From Bilabrum cf. latius (lineage: Eukaryota), in the NCBI GenBank assembly GCA_965178125.1, contig OZ237752.1, positions 930,001 through 994,000 on the forward strand: a stretch of DNA of 64,000 bases, given 5' to 3'. The notes beneath the pieces were generated by a model. It searched no databases, was not told the origin of the DNA, and was given only the letters and a program-made list of their open reading frames with translations. Of this stretch, positions 12,354 through 41,947 are shown one piece after another. Each line of letters opens with the position of its first letter. Position 1 is the stretch's first letter. A program made the position numbers and the translations under genes.

Positions 12354-12775
12354 TGCCCCAGGCGCGATTACAAAGCGATCGGATGTGCACAAAGCACCAG
12401 ATACAAAGCACAAGTTAGTCGGCAAAGTAGAGGATAAGTAGGTGCACAAATCCGATGCTGGTACCAGGTCTTTAGCCACATCAATTGGAGTCTCTTCCCG
12501 TCAGGCTAGCATAATTCGTGCTGCTCATACTGTGAGGGCTGCTCGGTGTCACACCATCTAGGTCAGAGGCAGCGATCCGACACTGCCCAACGCCTGCGAT
12601 CCCCCCCTAGCCACATCCCGCGGTAGGATAACTGCTTTCATGCAAAAGACTACAAAGCTAGCACGCCCCGGTAGGAGCGATATGGAGACTTTCGGCTCCC
12701 AAAGTCGGTATGGCGAGCACCTGTAGCGCCGTTCAGCCGTCCGGGGGGCGGAGAGGGGGAGCACGTCGTGCTGGA

Positions 12776-14209
12776 TCACAAATGAACAGTATCCATGTGC
12801 TTCTTGAGATGGCCTGCCTACCCGAAGCGCTTGTGGCACACGATGCACTCGTGATTGCGCTCCCCGAGATGCACCGTGCTCATGTGCGTCTTGAGACTGC
12901 CTGCCTCCCCGAAGCGCTTGTGGCACACGATGCACTCGTGATTGCGCTCCCCCAGATGCACCGTGCTCATGTGCGTCTTGAGACTGCCTGCCTACCCGAA
13001 GCGCTTGTGGCACACGATGCACTCGTGATTGCGCTCCCCGAGATGCACCGTGCTCATGTGCGTCTTGAGACTGCCTGCCTACCCGAAGCGCTTGTGGCAC
13101 ACGATGCACTCGTGATTGCGCTCCCCGAGATGCACAGTGGACATGTGCTTCTTGAGATGGCCTGCCTCCCCAAAGCGCTTGTGGCACACGATGCACTCGT
13201 GATTGCGCTCCCCCAGATGCACCGTGCTCATGTGCGTCTTGAGATGGCCTGCCTCCCCAAAGCGCTTGTGGCACACGATGCACTCGTGATTGCGCTCGCC
13301 CAGATGCACAGTGGACATGTGCTTCTTGAGACTGCCTGCCTACCCGAAGCGCTTGTGGCACACGATGCACTCGTGATTGCGCTCGCCCAGATGCACAGTG
13401 CTCATGTGCTTCTTGAGATGGCCTGCCCTCCCGAAGCGCTTGTGGCACACGATGCACTCGTGATTGCGCTCCCCGAGATGCACCGTGCTCATGTGCTTCT
13501 TGAGATGGCCTGCCTCCCCAAAGCGCTTGTGGCACACGATGCACTCGTGATTGCGCTCGCCCAGATGCACAGTGGACATATGATTCTTGAGATGGCCTGG
13601 CCTCCCGAAACGCTTGTGGCACACGATGCACTCGTGATTGCGCTCGCCCAGATGCACACCCAACACATGCCTTTGAAGCGACCTTACGCTCGACAGTATC
13701 TATCCGCACACCTCGCACTCATGCCCCACTCCCGCACTATCACCACTGGCATGTACCTCGTATGCTGTCCTCCTCTTCTTCTTCTCCTTTCCCACAGCGG
13801 GCTTGTCACAAGAAGCCTCCTTGGCGGTATGCTAGAGATCCGTTCGAGCACGCTTCTGTCCGATTTGAGTGCTCGGGCTATGTCTGCTAAGCCCACCGAA
13901 TTCCATCACAGAGCTGCTTGCCATCCCCGAGGTTGCGCTCGATGACGACGACCGGGGCTATTGTAGTGACTTCAAGTTGCTGTCATCCGGCCTACCTGCT
14001 AGTCCTGCACGAGATAGCATTGTGCGTCTCGCTGCTCCGCCAGTCCTCGATTCATTGCCGACCAGCCTAACCACCACATCGTGACTTGTAGTTGGTGCCT
14101 TCTACACATGCTCGTCATGGCTCTCCTCGTCGTCCTGCTCGTATTCACTATCGCTGCTGCTAACGAGGTCAATCACATCATCATGAGCTGATGCTGCCAC
14201 GGACGACAT
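12776..14209 (-). CDS. C2H2 zinc-finger protein (11 fingers; N-terminal SIM-like VIDLVSSSDSE and basic NLS-like KEKKKRR)
   Basis: One 477-codon frame from ATG 14209 to TGA 12776 with 8 in-frame TAGs (14102, 13958, 13832, 13700, 13340, 13079, 12992, 12818). Repeating unit HECIVCHKRFGxAG[H/S]LKxHMSTVHLGERN. Confidence 0.88.
12779..13657 (-). repeat. 87-bp coding minisatellite, 10 near-identical units (zinc fingers)
   Basis: The unit core gcttgtggcacacgatgcactcgtgattgcgctc recurs every 87 bp; for example, TAG positions 12818, 12992 and 13079 are spaced by multiples of 87. Confidence 0.95.
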
Positions 14210-14562
14210 TGCAAAGGAACGCACTTTTAAGATGACAGCAAATCGATATTTCTAACGGGTGTGTCAATGTGACACGCTTCCAGTCAACTAAGGGGTCTGA
14301 ATATCTTGCAGAAGGTACCCTGGTCCTCCCTTTCTCTCGCAAAGAATCGCGAACGATAGTCTGCTAGCCAACACAGCTGATTTATAGTGGCAATACGAAG
14401 AAGCCCGTGATTTTTTCGGAATTTAGCTGGAAGCAGGCAAGAAAAAGTTGCGGAGATCCGGTATGTCGCCAGCTTGGATGTTCCGCAATATGGCCGGGCT
14501 AAAAATGGCGCCGCGAAGCAAACCGAAACGAGCACTTATTAACACTGTGTCACTTGCCTGCC

Positions 14563-14931
14563 ATGCCCTACCCAACAAGCACCATATCTACGGGCACCCA
14601 TCGCGCGTCCGTTCCTCCACCGGTTCAATACCAGTGCAACATGCCTGCCCAACCGCCGAGTTGGCTGCAGAAGGCCTACTAGTACCTGTAGCCAAGGCTG
14701 CCCAGGACAACCCGTTCGTACACCCGTCATCTAAAGTCTATGTGCCATGGGCTGCAGCATGAGACCGCAGCGTCAGACTGCAAAGACAGTGTAGCTTGCG
14801 GTCACATCTGGGCGCAGCCCAACTGCGTGGCTCACTATCAGCCGCATCGCTTGCCGTGCTGCAGGAAGGCCTTCGACCTTGAGATGGACCTACTCTACAT
14901 CGAGCGGATTGCAGGCCGGCACCTCTCGTAA
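14563..14931 (+). CDS. Possible small hypothetical protein (122 aa)
   Basis: Open from ATG 14563 through two TAGs to TAA 14929. No recognisable domain, so it may be non-coding. Confidence 0.25.
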
Positions 14932-15172
14932 CATCCTCTGCCTCTGAGGCAGCACCCCATCCTACGAGACACCCATCAATGCCCCCCCCTTGAGCTGCTG
15001 CAGCAAGCGCACTGACACAGGTCCCTGTGCGACTGCAAGGCAGGCATCGGACGGGCTGCAAGCAAGCTCTCATGACAGTCACCTCATGAGTGCTGCCAGT
15101 GCGCCCACACCACGACAGTCAATCGCAGGGCGCACAATGAGCTGGCATAAGGTCACAGCAAATGTGATACGA

Positions 15173-15820
15173 TCATCGACCCCCCATTCCGCCCCTTGCA
15201 GCAACACCCCCTCCTCCTCCCCCCATCCCTCTCCCTCGTGCCGCGCCCCTGCCCGTCGTCCTACTAGAGGGACCACTGGTGGCACCCCTGCTGCTCTTCG
15301 CGGCGGCAGCGCCTCCTCCCGCAGGCATTGCTTTGGGAGCCTCTCCCATCGCCTTCCTGGACTTGGGCTTGAAGGGGATGCCCTCGAAGCCACCGGACGC
15401 CTGCTTGAAGGCAGGGTGGTAGTCGAACTCGGCCTCGAGCAGCGCAAGGCCGTTCGCGTGCTTCTCGACTGCCTTGTCGTACAGCGTGCCGATCTCGCCG
15501 GTCAGGGTGTCGTACTTGCGATCGAATGGGCCGATGCGCCGGTCGAACTCATCGAGCCACTCGCGTGCGTGCTTCAGGCGGAGCTAGGTGAGCTCCTTCT
15601 CGAGGCGAATCCGTTTCAAAATGGCGTTGTACGCTGCAAGGCCATCCCTGTCCGCCTTAATTTCATCCATTACTATGCTTAATCGCTGCTGGAGCTGGTC
15701 AATCACTGCTCCAAGCATTGCAAAATTCTGATTCATTTTGGCGTACTGTTTGTAGTTGACTTGCTTCTTGGCAGCCGGCTTTCGAACGCCTGAAGCTCCA
15801 CGTCCTCTCCCAGCTTCCAT
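15173..15820 (-). CDS. Hypothetical coiled-coil protein
   Basis: ORF 15584..15820 continues through TAG 15584 (EKELT*LRLKHAREWLDEFDRRIGPFDRKY...) with GC3-rich codons to TGA at 15173. Confidence 0.75.
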
Positions 15821-15966
15821 GGCAACAGGAAAGCAGCAGAAGGTCTATTTGCCGCTATTTATGTCTGAAAACGACGAATTTTCGGCTCGCGACCAACTCC
15901 GATTTATGCCTCACTCGCCAACGGAAACTCTGGCCGGTTGCATTGGAGTGTACAGGGCGCTACACG

Positions 15967-16762
15967 ATGCCGAAGAAGAAGAAGAAGGCCGCTGGTGATG
16001 GTTCTGAAATGGATGATGCAGCGAAGGTTGCCAGACTGACGCATGAAAACACTGCGTTGCGATTGCAGCTAGGTTAGCTTTGTTGCATCGGCAATCAGCC
16101 GCTGTGCAGCACACCTAGAGCGACTCCCAATTGTCACTTGTGCACCATCTGTCTCATTTCACAGCACAAAAGACATAGGATGCGCTGAAGGCTGAACGCG
16201 AAATGCGGGAACTCCGCAGTAGGGTGACAGAGCTTCGGTCCGACTTTCGCGAGACCGCCGACGATACTTTTGCCATCACGGCAGACATGACTAGGCAATA
16301 CAAAGCTATGGAAAAGAAGTTTCTTGATGATATTACCAAGCTGGAAGATAGGATACGCGCACTTGAGGACGAGCTAGGTGAGCGAGGCTGGACGGTCCGA
16401 ATCGATTGCTTGCGCGCACAGCCCAAGCCCAAGAACTGACACATATATGACCCTTCTTGCGCCCATGACTTGCAGCTGAGGCTCGCACTGCCTATGAGGA
16501 ACTTCAAGAGGAGAAGGTAGCCCTGTTGAAGGCGAAGGACGAGGAAATCGCGCTGCTCAAGGACAAGGCCGAGGACATGGCCGCAGAGTTCGCAGAAATG
16601 CTGCAGGAAACGCTCCGCAGGATGGCAGACAAGATCGAAATATCCGCGGCCAAGTGGGACGGGGACGGATCGGTCCCCGTCATCCAGCGAATGAAGGAAT
16701 TCACTCCATCGGCAGGCGGAGGCGCGAGCGCGGGGGGCAGCGGTGCGGGAGCAGGGACGTGA
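15967..16762 (+). CDS. CCDC153: CCDC153/DRC12-like flagellar coiled-coil protein
   Basis: Exons 15967-16072, 16165-16377 and 16476-16762. TFAITADMTRQYKAM and KDEEI...MAAEFAEMLQETL motifs. TAG at 16176, TGA stop. Confidence 0.75.
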
Positions 16763-36661: not shown

Positions 36662-39600
36662 ATGATCCGGAGACTTGTGCTCTGGTTTGCTTTTATATCG
36701 TTAGTTTCCTTTGCGTTGTCCCATCGGGATGGTGCTCATGCGTCTGTGAACGTGGGATAGGCCCTCGAGAAGCCAAGCCTTGGCTCCAGCTCGGCTGCAG
36801 GAAACGAGGTCGGGTCTGAGATCGGAAACGGACCGAAACGTAGTAAAACCAGCAAAGATGCGCAGTCCGACCCGGTGCAAGATGCCGAATCGCTCGCGGT
36901 GACCGCAGGGTCCGGTGCCAAAGCACCGGGGGCAGCGGCCAGCAGCCTAGCGGCCTCACAGCCGAATGCAATAGAAACCGCAGAAGATAAATAGGCGTTG
37001 GTCGATTCAGTTGCGTCTCCAGAAGAAGCAGCAGACACAGTTACCAGCGAAGGTGCCAAGATAGAAACGGAGGCACTCGCCAAGATCAATGCCGCCCTGG
37101 AGGCCGAGCTCAAAGCCGTTGTGGCCGCCGATGCGGCAGCGGCCGCCGCCGCCGACTCCCACGGGTCGCACGGGTCCGAGGTGGACGACCTGCGAGAGAA
37201 GCTCCGCTCGGCTCTCGGGCGGGCTGCCTCCTCGTCCACTGCGGCCCGCAAGGCCGCGTCCGAGCAGTCGGCGGCGAGCACAGGCGCACCCCTGCCGGGC
37301 TCGGGTGCCTTTTAGGCGGTGGACTCCCACCTGGACGCCACTGTGGACGCATCCACAGAGGCGTTCGACCTGCAGCAGAAGCTCCGCGCCCTGGAGGGCG
37401 AGGCGGAGGGCAGGCAGGCGGCTTCCACCGAGGCCGTGGGGGCGAGCCAGGCGCAGCGCGCGCACGCCCTCGAGGTGATCGGGGAGCTCACGGCGCAGGC
37501 CAAGGCGCAGCACGCGACTGCGGACAAGGCCGCGTGCAAGGCCGAGGACCAGCAGGCCGAGCTGGGCAGGGAGGCAGAGCAGGCCGCCGGCCGGGCCGCC
37601 GCCATGCAATCGCAGTCCGAGTCCGAGTCGCAGCTGCAGCAAGGAGAACAAGCAAAGGACCCCGAGTCCGCGGCAGACGCCCACTCCAAAGCCATCCAGC
37701 ACGCGGAAAAGGCAGCCAAGGCAGCCAAGCATGCCGCCAGCCTCGCCTCGGCCGAGCGGGCGCACGCCGCCATGTGGGCGGACCTCAAGGCGAGGCTCGC
37801 GCAAGCCAGGGAACAAATCGCCGCGCGGCTGTCGGCCCCCGCGGCCCTGGGGAAGCACGAGATCGAGGGGATGCTCCTGAAGTCCGCTGGGGCGGGGGAG
37901 GGAGGGGACGCCGAGGCGGAGGCGGAGGCGCAGACCGCGGCGGCCAAGGGCAGGGCCGCCATCCAGGCTGCGGCGGGGCTCCTGGCACACCCGGAGAAGA
38001 GCCAGCTGGGCAGACTCCGAGCGCAATCGGCGGCTTCGAGCGGCGAGGCGGGGGCGGCGGCACAGGCGGAGGCTGGCGCGGCGGGTGCGGCGCTGGAGGG
38101 GCAGGAGGCGGCCGCTCGGGAGGCGGAGGCCAGGGAACAAGCCAAGCGGGACCTCGAGGGGGCTGGGGATGGCGAAGAAGAAGAGAAGGAGGAGGAAGTG
38201 GAGGGGTCAGGGAACAATGGAGACGCTGACGGTGTGCTGGACGGAGATCTGGCCGTGGGCTGTGAGGGGGAGGGGGATGGGGATGGGGGTGGGTCCTCTG
38301 TGTGCGACCAGGCCAGGGCAGCAAAAGAGGCGGCCATGGGCGTGTCCACCTCGGGGGAGGGCGAGGACGGGGAAGGAGAAGGAGCGGGGGAGTCCCTGTT
38401 CGGTGCGAACGGCGAGCAAGCGCTGGCGGGTGTGGACGCCGCGGCCGACGCGGCTCTAGCCAAGGTGGAGGGCGCCGTGCAGGAGCTGGGCCAGGACGAG
38501 CTGGAGAACAACGACCGCAAGGAGGGAAACAACGCCACGGGGCACACGCACACGGTGGAGACCACGCTGACCGTGCGTCGGTCGGGAGGGCACGGCGAGC
38601 CTGTGCAGGTGCAGACCCACTCGAGCAAGATGCAGGTCACTTCCGCTTCCATCCCGGACGGGCCAGGTGCCCCCCTCGGTGACGGGCCGGGTGCCCCTCT
38701 CGGTGACGGGGGCCCGCAGCAGCCCGTGGCACTTGCAGCCGCTGAGCTGCGGGCCGAGCTGGACCGCAAGGCCCTGGAGGATGGCGCAGGAGCTTCCAGC
38801 GACAAGGGCAAAGACAAGGGCAAGGAGAAAAGGAGGCAGGAACGCGAGGCGGGCCGCAAGTCGGGCGGGTCGCAGCAACCGCTGGGGCCAGGCAGTGGAA
38901 GTGGAAGCGGAAGCGGAAGCGGTGCTCCCCTGACGCAGGAGGAGAAGGAGCAGGCCGCTCGAGAGGCCAAGGAGAGGAAGGAGGAGGAAGAGGAGGAGAA
39001 GCGCGTCGTGGAAAAGGCCGCCAAAGAGGCCGAAGAAGAGGAGAAGGAAGCGGAGAAGCAGGCCGAGTAGGAAGTCGCGAAAGAAGAAGAACAGGAGGAG
39101 GAGAAGGATACGAAGAAGGGGGGCTCCGCCGCGCTGCTGGCACAGCTGTCGTCCTCGTCAGCTTCCTCGTCGTCCCGGGTGTCCAGGGAACAAGCAGGGG
39201 CTATCCTGGGGGCCGCCACTCGCATGACCACAGCCAAGGCTCCACCGACCAGTGAGGAGAGCCAGGGCGGGCATGGAGGTGGGGCCGAAGACGCGCACGA
39301 GGTGGGCACTGGCACTGGCAAGGCCGCCATGAGCGGGGAGGCTGGTTCGGGCTCGGGCTCGGGCTCGGGCGGGGTGGAGGGCATGCTGGCTCGCCTCTCT
39401 CACACGATCGGGGCTGCGTTTGAGAAGGGCTTCGGCATGCTGTCCAAGAAGAAGGGCGGGGCAGAGGAGATTGGCTCCGGCTCTGGCCCTGGGGCTGATG
39501 CAGAGTCCGGCTCCGAGTCCGGCTCTGGCCGCGTGGAGACGGGTTCTTCGCCCGAGGCGCGGCAGGCCAACCTCGGGGGCGTGGACCACGTCGCTGCGAT

Positions 39601-41947
39601 GGCGCCTCACCTGGAGGCCGTGGCGGACGGGCTGGGCAGCGGGGATGCGGTGCATGGGGACGGGGAGGGGGAGGGGGAGGGAGCCGAGGGGGCGGGCATT
39701 CTCGCCGTGGCAGACGCCCCTGCGCAGCCCACTCTGGGCGAGGTGCAGTCGAGCGTGACCCAAGAGGACATCGACAAGGTGCGGGAGCTGACAGGGGCCG
39801 GTGCGGGGGCCGGTGCGGGTGCGGGTGCGGGTGGGTGCGGCAAGGCGGGCGGTTCCCCGTGCCCTCCGCTGGTGGTGCATGAGCCGCAGTGCCCATGCCC
39901 TCCGCTGGCGGTGCATGAGCCGCAGTGCCCGTGCTCTGCAGGGAACAAGGCAGCTGCCCCAGGCGCCGAGTGCCAGTGCAAGGCATAGGCACATGCACAG
40001 GCACAGGCAAGCGCGTGCCCTTGCAAGACAAAGTCCTAGTCCCAATCCGCGGGAGGCAAGGCGTGTTCCTGCAGCGAGGGCGCTCACACGGAGACTGGGA
40101 CTGGGCATGAGAACGATGCCGATTCCGCGCCCCCCAAGCAGGACCCTGCAGGCGCCTCTGTGGCAGCCAAGGTGGATGAGGCCGTGGCCCGTGTGAAGCA
40201 CGCCGCCTCTATGGCCGTGGTGGGGGCCAGCAAGCCCAGCCCGCCCGACCCCAGCAAGGAGGAGCAGGGGGGGGACGAGCAGGAGGGCAAGGCTAAGGGA
40301 GAGGGGGAGGAGCAGGAAGAGGAAGCGCCTAAAGAGGCCAGCAAGGACGAGGAGCAGGCCGCGAGTGGCAAGCAGGAGGAGCAGGTGGAAGAGGAAGACA
40401 AGGAGGCCAGCAAGGCACCGAAGGAGGACGGGTAGACAGACGAAGCCGAGGACGAGGCGAACGGCAAGGAGGGGCAGGGGGGAGAGGGAGGGCAGGGCAG
40501 TGCCGAGGACGAGGGCGTGAAAGAGGACGTGAAGGAGGACGCGGAGGGAGAAGTTGAAGAGACGGAGTCGAATGGGAAGGAAGAGGAGCAAGGGCAGCAA
40601 GGGGAGGAGGAGCAAGGGCAGCAAGGGGAGGAGGAGCAAGGGCAGAAAGAGGAAGAAGAGCAAGGGCAGCAAGGGGAGGAGGAGCAAGGGCAGGAAAGGG
40701 AGGAGGAGCAAGGGCAGGAAGGGGAGGAGGAGCAAGGGCAGCAAGGGGAGGAGGAGCAAGGGCAGGAAGAGGAGGAGGAGCAAGGGCAGGAAGAAGAGGG
40801 CAAGGACCAGGGAGGGGAGGAGGAGACTGCCCTACTGCAGCGGCGTGCAGGCAGCACCAGCAGCAGCACTGGCACCCAGCGGGTGCTGCAGATGGAGGGC
40901 ACGGCCCGCTCCCGCGCCAGGGCACAGTCCAAGTCCTAGGCCCACCGGTCCCCCGTGTTCACGGCACTGCAGCGCTTGGAGCGGGACTAGCGGGTGGCGG
41001 AGATGACCCAGCGGCTGCACCGCGAGGAGGACGAGAAGGAGGGCAGGAGACTCAAGGGGCAGTCGGTGGAGGGGGAGGGGGGGCAGCCAGCGCCGACCAT
41101 GTACCTATTCAAGGAGGGCGAGGGTTAGAGCGTGCAGGGGGTGCAGGTGGACGCAAGGAAATCGGTACAGCCACCGCCACCATCCCCCGCGCCGCAGCTG
41201 CCGCCCCCGTCGCAGCTCGCCATTGCTGGGCAGACGCAGGCACAAGTAGCGGCACAGGCAGTGGCACAGGCACAGGCGGTGCCAGTACAGGGTACCCCGG
41301 CATCGCCACCAGCAGCAGTAGCAGCAGCAGCGCCCCCCCCTGCGCCCCCTGTTCCCGGTGCCGCTGGCTCGGACCCCGCTGTGTCCCAGCACGGAGTCGT
41401 CTTCATCCCGGGCAGCGAGCCCAAGCCCAGCGAGCCCACGCCCAGCTGCCCCCAGCAGCAGCAGCAGCAGCAGGCCCCGGCCCCCGTCCTCCGGGGGGCC
41501 TACAGGACCCCTGTCTGCGTGCCCGAGGGGACGCTGCAGCCGGCCCAGGCGAGCCCCTGCCAGCAGAGCCCATGCCAGGAGGGCAGCGGGGAGGGGGAGA
41601 CCACCGAGCCGATGGCCGTGCAGCTGGCCCCGACGCTGGACCCCGGCCTCCCGCAGCTCCCCGGCTCGATTTCCGATTCCGAGTTATCGCACAGCGCAGA
41701 GGGCTCCTCCTCCTTCCACGCGGAGCAGGAGGCCCGGCTCGAGAGGCTGGCGGAGCACACCAGGGACATCTTCGGGGACCCGGAGCCGGAAATGCCCCGG
41801 CAGGTGGTGGAGTGCTGCTGCGAGGCCAAGTGCGAGAGGCCCGCGCCGCCCACGTGCGGATGTGCGGCGCCTGTCGCGGTTGCGGAACCGGCTGCACGCA
41901 TCGTTGTGGCGTCGGAGGGCCTGGCGAAGATACCAGGCAACGCATGA
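36662..41947 (+). CDS. Secreted, ~1760-aa Ala/Glu/Gly-rich low-complexity protein with Cys-Pro clusters
   Basis: Signal peptide MIRRLVLWFAFISLVSFALS. One frame with 10 TAGs (36758, 36992, 37313, 39068, 39986, 40037, 40433, 40937, 40988, 41126) unites six track ORFs. TGA stop. Confidence 0.8.
40578..40800 (+). repeat. 24-bp coding tandem repeat (about 9 units, EEEQGQxx)
   Basis: Recurrent gaggagcaagggcag core with 24-nt period. Confidence 0.85.

Follow-up and report, generated by a model that had tools for sequence, protein, structure and literature searches.

A clustered zinc-finger gene family with an N-terminal SUMO-interacting motif and diversified finger arrays in Bilabrum cf. latius

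The KRAB zinc-finger proteins (KRAB-ZFPs) of tetrapods and the FiNZ-ZNFs of cyprinid fish constitute large, clustered families in which a short acidic N-terminal effector is followed by a C-terminal tandem array of C2H2 fingers whose DNA-contact residues diversify (Wells 2023), traits that recur in the family described here. The targeting of transposable elements by such proteins has been regarded as a likely metazoan innovation (Wells 2023), and the C2H2 motifs of non-metazoans as limited in diversity and slow-evolving (Najafabadi 2017). Lineage-specific C2H2 expansions are also known outside animals, in the red algae Chondrus and Porphyridium, where they have been tied to morphological complexity (Petroll 2021).

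The gene studied here lies in a stretch of 64,000 nt of Bilabrum cf. latius (assembly GCA_965178125.1, contig OZ237752.1, positions 930,001-994,000, forward strand), called the window below; coordinates without a contig handle refer to it. The gene shares with PRDM9 a homogenised minisatellite array, a divergent first finger and diversity at the contact residues. Our best explanation, held with moderate confidence, is that it belongs to a convergent, KRAB-ZFP-like surveillance family that would recruit silencing through SUMO, both the targets and the repression being putative.

The window gene, its array and the genetic code

The features of the gene are collected in Table 1. Reading through TAG, the ORF contains eight in-frame TAG codons. 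Its start agrees in alignment with those of its paralogues and, because of this match, no upstream exon for KRAB or SSXRD is needed. A 411-aa antisense ORF (12710-13945) was considered as a gene and taken to be a shadow of the repeat; paralogues have similar open antisense frames.

Table 1. Features of the zinc-finger gene in the window
Feature	Position	Strand	Remark
Single-exon gene with SIM, NLS-like motif and tandem C2H2 fingers	12776..14209	-	477 aa, TGA stop
Predicted SUMO-interacting motif (SIM), core residues 12-16, then Ser/Asp/Glu tract	14111..14182	-	paralogue profile vs PDB
Two basic clusters, residues 117-148, bipartite-NLS-like	13766..13861	-	conserved alignment columns
Divergent first finger, type common to many paralogues	13637..13723	-	finger alignment
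Ten 87-bp / 29-aa HX4H C2H2 fingers, variable at -1, +3, +6	12779..13636	-	
First -1 TAG (Gln) codon, in finger 5	13340..13342	-	
Further -1 TAG (Gln) codons	13079-13081, 12992-12994, 12818-12820	-	

A first-pass annotation of the window had described one divergent finger followed by ten units differing at helix positions -1, +3 and +6. Its coordinates and triplets were reproduced, as were the single +1 Pro and the one Ser-to-Asp replacement in the last finger. The triplets of fingers 2-11 are RHN, EHK, RHK, *SK, EHT, EHK, *ST, *ST, EST and *HK (the asterisk marks TAG), and position +2 is an invariant Gly. TRF finds 9.9 copies of an 87-bp unit at 12794-13657, and the mean DNA identity of the ten homogenised fingers is 91.5% (24 codons). 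Only three positions, each a contact position, have amino-acid variants that recur in at least two units; if three of the 23 non-structural positions were drawn at random, all would fall among the four contact positions with a probability of 4/1771 = 0.002. Synonymous variants present in at least two units occur at five other codons, so the backbone of this array mutates yet holds its amino acids.

Only finger-type Pfam families matched the protein (zf-H2C2_2, E 1e-57, ten stretches) and none matched its N-terminal 160 aa, which agrees with the absence of SET and KRAB reported at first pass. Seven residues separate the last His of a finger from the next Cys, and the array thus joins at least three C2H2 fingers by linkers of canonical length; similar HX4H arrays occur in haptophytes and red algae. 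The label NLS for the basic clusters would follow from the known form of that motif. Since the ten units share one frame and dozens of intact paralogous arrays exist, misassembly of the array is unlikely. A strain comparison (four runs from three studies) gave no differences in the non-repetitive stretch 13660-16000, outside the array.

The genome comprises 48.6 Mb in 111 contigs, and reading through TAG yields long ORFs with Pfam domains. The residue inserted was assigned from 12 dynein heavy-chain stretches with 143 TAG codons, compared with 40 of 120 homologues. Where a column is conserved, TAG faces Q in 27 of 64 cases, E in nine and R in six; in the same alignments CAG faces Gln in 316/601 columns, CAA faces Gln in 33/74, and GAG faces Glu in 531/866. 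The TAG profile is like that of CAG/CAA and unlike that of GAG, ruling out Glu, Leu, Tyr or Lys. By this comparison, TAG encodes Gln in the nuclear genome, as had been supposed for the recoded codon at -1. The PRP8 gene has too few informative TAGs for a residue to be assigned. The single CTA-anticodon tRNA (C23:907607-907679, L051) does not name the residue, because it gives no clear alignment with the Gln tRNAs of the genome. Family genes end in TGA (58/61) or TAA (3/61). Gln is the commonest -1 residue of the family when CAG and TAG are pooled; TAG stands at -1 in 4 of 40 genes, three of which have no CAG there.

A quick phylogeny of a single dynein places the host with Cantina marsupialis and metagenomic proteins (SH-aLRT 97), and on this basis the organism is probably an opalozoan within the stramenopiles. 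The reading of UAG as Gln with UAA kept as a stop is known in Iotanema and some ciliates (McGowan 2024); in the open-licence literature searched no case was found in a stramenopile.

Other observations concern the same genome. Contig C111 is dense in tRNA genes, one with a TCA anticodon, and is probably a mitochondrion reading TGA as Trp. Nuclear contigs carry a tRNA-Ile with GAT anticodon (C32:91173, L057; C4:952092, L092), which is unusual for eukaryotes. Elsewhere in the window, a 24-bp Glu/Gln-rich coding repeat (40579-40825) lies inside a 1761-aa protein (36662-41947) that has a signal-peptide-like start and no Pfam match.

A clustered gene family with an N-terminal SIM

By its sequence, the window gene is no lone locus but one of at least 70 family members, which are intron-free and spread over 17 contigs; 53 of the 70 lie within 15 kb of another member. 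The number of fingers per gene has a median of 12 and ranges from 4 to 19. In the genome, a DNA query of two fingers matched 318 times, and the Pfam finger model yielded 951 candidates. Among 73 ORFs with at least two fingers in the fetched stretches, 69 carry an N-terminal VIDLV-type motif, one of them divergent; the other four are one unrelated ORF, one ORF with no in-frame motif and two fragments that form the downstream parts of interrupted genes. A DNA pattern for the SIM-coding region matched 45 times, always at the start of a finger gene, and never in the reversed control. These matches correspond to 34 known finger genes and 11 new ones and, because all 11 were confirmed as finger genes, a family total of roughly 80 members is suggested.

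Intact members consist of an N-terminal SIM with an acidic tract, the basic clusters and the tandem array, and the two clusters are the only conserved part of the stretch between motif and fingers. This clustered multigene family, with an N-terminal motif and a C-terminal tandem array, has a KRAB-ZFP-like organisation. The window gene has no close paralogue among the fetched genes. Carriage of the family as mobile-element cargo was also considered and set aside: dispersed duplicates share the gene and about 0.2-2 kb upstream, and no transposase-like ORF was seen by eye.

Some loci deserve separate mention. A dispersed repeat of about 149 bp, mostly 90-98% identical between copies (L102:3721-3869 and more than 30 matches in the fetched loci), is often found just 3' of finger genes and interrupts at least one. 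Two genes are possible ancestral forms: one encodes a five-finger protein with a similar finger type and no SIM (C26:699176-701107, L105), and the other is a divergent, non-homogenised family member (C3:329880-331250, L112).

Relatives outside this genome were searched in several ways. A word-index search (8000 scored, best 120) returned generic, mostly animal zinc-finger proteins with a best identity of 47%, and the best 150 of a profile search were long generic zinc-finger proteins. Among these 270 matches listed, 86 have at least three HX4H fingers, which resemble the family motif at a mean identity of 0.46 in the best case, and none carries an N-terminal SIM. Protist relatives may be missed, because long arrays rank higher in both searches and gene calls are cut short at TAG. 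Of the metagenome scans for the family, one found no locus and the other two (42-45%, unrelated-looking); viral scans found none.

The SIM-like character of the N-terminus, already noticed in the first-pass annotation, was borne out by a profile built from 15 paralogues and searched against 177,635 PDB sequences. Only three chains matched (2ASQ, a PIAS2 peptide, E 0.005; 5D2M, ZNF451, E 0.08; 4FO9, PIAS2, E 1.7), and all three bear SIMs. The motif aligns with the SIMs of these ZNF451 and PIAS2 structures, and two alignments show one conserved SIM per member. The genome has an intron-free SUMO-like gene, which carries an internal TAG, and a probable second one that is split by an intron. A six-frame search run with no positive control gave no match to zf-MIZ, the PIAS domain. 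SIMs also have non-repressive roles.

ZNF451 resembles the family in combining a SIM with C2H2 fingers, whereas the family differs from ZNF451 and PIAS in its single SIM, its fast-evolving tandem array and its multigene nature. A role of the members as DNA-targeted SUMO E3 or chain-elongating factors of the ZNF451 type appears highly improbable: although the family SIM closely matches a ZNF451 SIM and the zf-MIZ search, run with no positive control, detected no PIAS-type E3, the activity of ZNF451 requires two SIMs with a PxRP spacer where members carry one, and a ligase role alone leaves the diversification of contact residues unexplained.

Diversification of the finger arrays

Gene conversion makes formal dN/dS invalid for arrays of this kind (Baker 2017). 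Diversity within arrays was summarised as piN/piS in 57 arrays with at least five canonical fingers, out of 60 at that stage. Pooled over arrays, the contact codons -1/+3/+6 gave a ratio of 2.35 (2.07-2.63 by bootstrap over genes), compared with 0.36 for the non-contact codons, so that the per-site excess, for which the first-pass annotation had proposed a dN/dS estimate, is centred on the contact codons. Single positions gave 2.9 (-1), 2.5 (+3), 1.6 (+6) and 0.9 (+2), with 1.34 at the non-contact position +9. In the window gene the values are 2.73 for contact and 0.21 for non-contact codons, and 56 of the 57 arrays have a contact piN above their piS. The data are a strong indication of diversifying selection at the contact sites and no formal test, since units recombine or convert and paralogues are not independent.

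The contact alphabet of the family is small, with 100 triplets in 442 fingers and few codons per site. This would suit a neutral birth-and-death process, in which constraint is relaxed, minisatellite slippage and conversion shuffle a limited standing stock of contact codons, and the majority of copies have little function; codon bias, which may depress piS, and the interruption of some copies point the same way. However, relaxation predicts a ratio of about 1 and not those observed at -1 and +3, the backbone and SIM are conserved across subfamilies with barely alignable linkers, and nearly all family ORFs are intact. We consider such neutrality improbable.

The arrays also seem to exchange segments. 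The four-gamete test was positive in 48 of 67 arrays and, in the window gene, for all three site pairs, with all four allele combinations between contact codons only 9-18 bases apart. These positives therefore point to fine-scale exchange between finger units, with recurrent mutation as an alternative. The first-pass annotation had also proposed comparing finger order and array length among paralogues, and genes with near-identical N-termini mostly turned out to have no order in common: pairs 96-99% identical in N-terminal DNA share runs of 0-3 fingers, runs of 3-9 being found only in the youngest C3 cluster. For instance, C4:861525 and C4:865299 are 99.2% identical in N-terminal DNA, and they have 18 and 9 scored fingers, respectively, with a shared run of one. 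Contact diversification and re-ordering among paralogues sustain the idea of a rapidly re-targetable array, predicted to bind DNA. Seventeen of the 57 arrays are closer within themselves than to the nearest paralogue, among them that of the window gene (0.056 within the array, 0.115 to the nearest gene). On these distances, homogenisation acts at the level of subfamilies.

The PRDM9-like label given to the window gene is supported as regards its evolutionary signature, and not as regards a single special locus or recombination targeting. The contact-site share of amino-acid diversity in this array is 0.825, rank 1 of 57 (median 0.457), and PRDM9 itself has 0.687 in human and 0.910 in mouse (Baker 2017). 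A protein that marks meiotic break sites and recruits a separate methyltransferase or axis proteins via SUMO could show this PRDM9-level share, and the window gene is a singleton with a private backbone in a genome that has two Spo11/Top6A-family genes. Nevertheless, the protein has no SET, KRAB or SSXRD domain, and hotspot function together with fast finger evolution has been linked to the full domain set (Baker 2017). In addition, at least 70 paralogues have the same architecture, among which the window gene is the extreme of a continuum. A meiotic role is thus very unlikely, and an analogy with KRAB-ZFPs, that is, silencing of repeats or viruses, would fit better than the PRDM9 framing.

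Resident viruses, putative silencing and comparison with known systems

The genome contains 74 matches to rve integrase, many in groups of equal score, and 12 of 13 sampled ones sit in extended low-GC islands (25-49% GC). Pfam matches in these islands include virophage major capsid in three ORFs, pPolB, D5-like helicases, a small SET protein and methylases, a content similar to that of Cafeteria's endogenous virophages (Hackl 2021). One AT-rich region of about 50 kb (C3:1092001-1142000; L165, L166, L145-L147) is virophage-like, possibly with nested elements, and contains a capsid gene, two rve integrases, TET/JBP and FkbM-methyltransferase genes, a small SET, C5 methylases and a tRNA-Met; the SET- and tRNA-bearing type has at least five copies. 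The viruses at L145-L147, L157 and L166 use in-frame TAG freely and are in this sense adapted to the host code. Long ORFs in other endogenous viruses (L159-L161) lack TAG, which suggests that these arrived recently from standard-code hosts. GC-rich inserts of about 2 kb with split direct repeats occur in virophage-like elements (L156:2374-4394, L158:2123-3902) and resemble the Ngaro retrotransposons described in Cafeteria.

Sites predicted for 67 arrays by a rough recognition code were compared between real and shuffled finger orders on 128.5 kb of viral DNA. Real orders fitted this DNA no better than shuffled ones (7/67 top-ranked, 5.2 expected), and on host DNA 10/67 arrays ranked top; finger recognition codes are known to disagree with each other (Persikov 2015). 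The predicted sites have a GC content of 0.49 by soft scoring and of 876/2244 = 0.39 by consensus, between that of virus (0.35) and host (0.64).

This null scan would agree with members that regulate host genes through SUMO, or that act as gatekeepers tuning or activating resident virophages, and do not silence foreign DNA. Resident virophages can protect their host against giant viruses. A related flagellate can profit from virophages (Hackl 2021; PMC10945749), and the same protein anatomy suits any SUMO-linked transcription factor. Ordinary host regulation, however, predicts neither the full scrambling of fingers between duplicates 97-99% identical nor a contact-site piN/piS above 2, and we regard this possibility as unlikely. 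There is a slight chance that the family follows host repeats that change fast (satellites, centromeric or telomeric DNA, meiotic drivers) and uses SUMO to organise them. Such conflicts leave the same signature, KZNFs bind satellites too (Wells 2023) and copies of the repeat of about 149 bp are found close to many family genes; the young foreign DNA that stands out in this genome is, on the other side, viral.

Components of known silencing routes were also searched. Piwi had no match in a six-frame search of the genome, while two prokaryotic control genomes matched; PAZ, RdRP and Pre-SET gave no genome match in six-frame searches run with no positive controls, and RNase III is represented by one lone domain. 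A lack of RNAi components is, on this type of search, suggestive only. Of the 11 C5-methylase matches, eight coincide with viral integrase loci or lie close to them and three are on high-numbered contigs, and no clear host DNA methylase was detected among them. The animal SUMO-H3K9 route is not evident, because neither Pre-SET (SUV39/SETDB-type) nor zf-MIZ (PIAS) matched. Six host SET genes were inspected, one of which is an E(z)-like CXC+SET gene (C30:41018-45550); among 18 SET matches in the genome, none falls inside a located family gene.

In the silencing model that we favour, the family would consist of lineage-specific, programmable DNA-binding repressors, KRAB-ZFP-like in their working and independent in origin. 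Each array would read a long, specific DNA site, and the SIM would dock on SUMOylated chromatin factors and so lead to silencing, with the E(z)-like enzyme as the visible candidate. The targets that drive the process would be the numerous young virophage-like elements together with the retrotransposons that they carry, and the family would supply the sequence-specific guide, a role played by small RNAs in many other protists. More tentatively, a flagellate devoid of RNAi and of host cytosine methylation may use some 70-80 zinc-finger genes as a protein-guided immunity that is directed at integrated virophages and retrotransposons, silences or gates them via SUMO and is reprogrammed by finger recombination at PRDM9-like speed. 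If true, this immunity would contradict the view of mobile-element targeting by zinc fingers as an innovation of metazoans. Whatever the target, a re-programmable finger repertoire has arisen independently in a unicellular stramenopile, and this compact genome allows testing whether fingers evolve under conflict with mobile DNA in organisms other than animals, and by what means endogenous virophages are controlled in protists.

An expansion of C2H2 genes alone is not new, because red algae already have such expansions, for which the part of the account drawn on here mentions no SIM, homogenised arrays or contact-site selection (Petroll 2021). No description of a protist SIM zinc-finger family was found in the open-licence literature searched. 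What appears to be new is the combination of a SIM effector, family-wide reshuffling at PRDM9 speed, an apparent lack of RNAi and a heavy virophage load. Unlike KRAB-ZFPs and FiNZ-ZNFs, the family has no KRAB or FiNZ domain and carries instead a SIM of about five residues and an acidic tract; its genes are single-exon, its fingers are of the 29-aa HX4H type, its arrays are far more homogenised, and its host is a unicellular stramenopile in which its targets are putative. With respect to PRDM9, the window gene differs in its missing domains, in being one of many paralogues and in its unit of 87 bp, that of PRDM9 being 84 bp. Judged from its sequence, the window gene is therefore neither a PRDM9 nor a KRAB-ZFP: its mode of evolution resembles that of the former and its organisation that of the latter.
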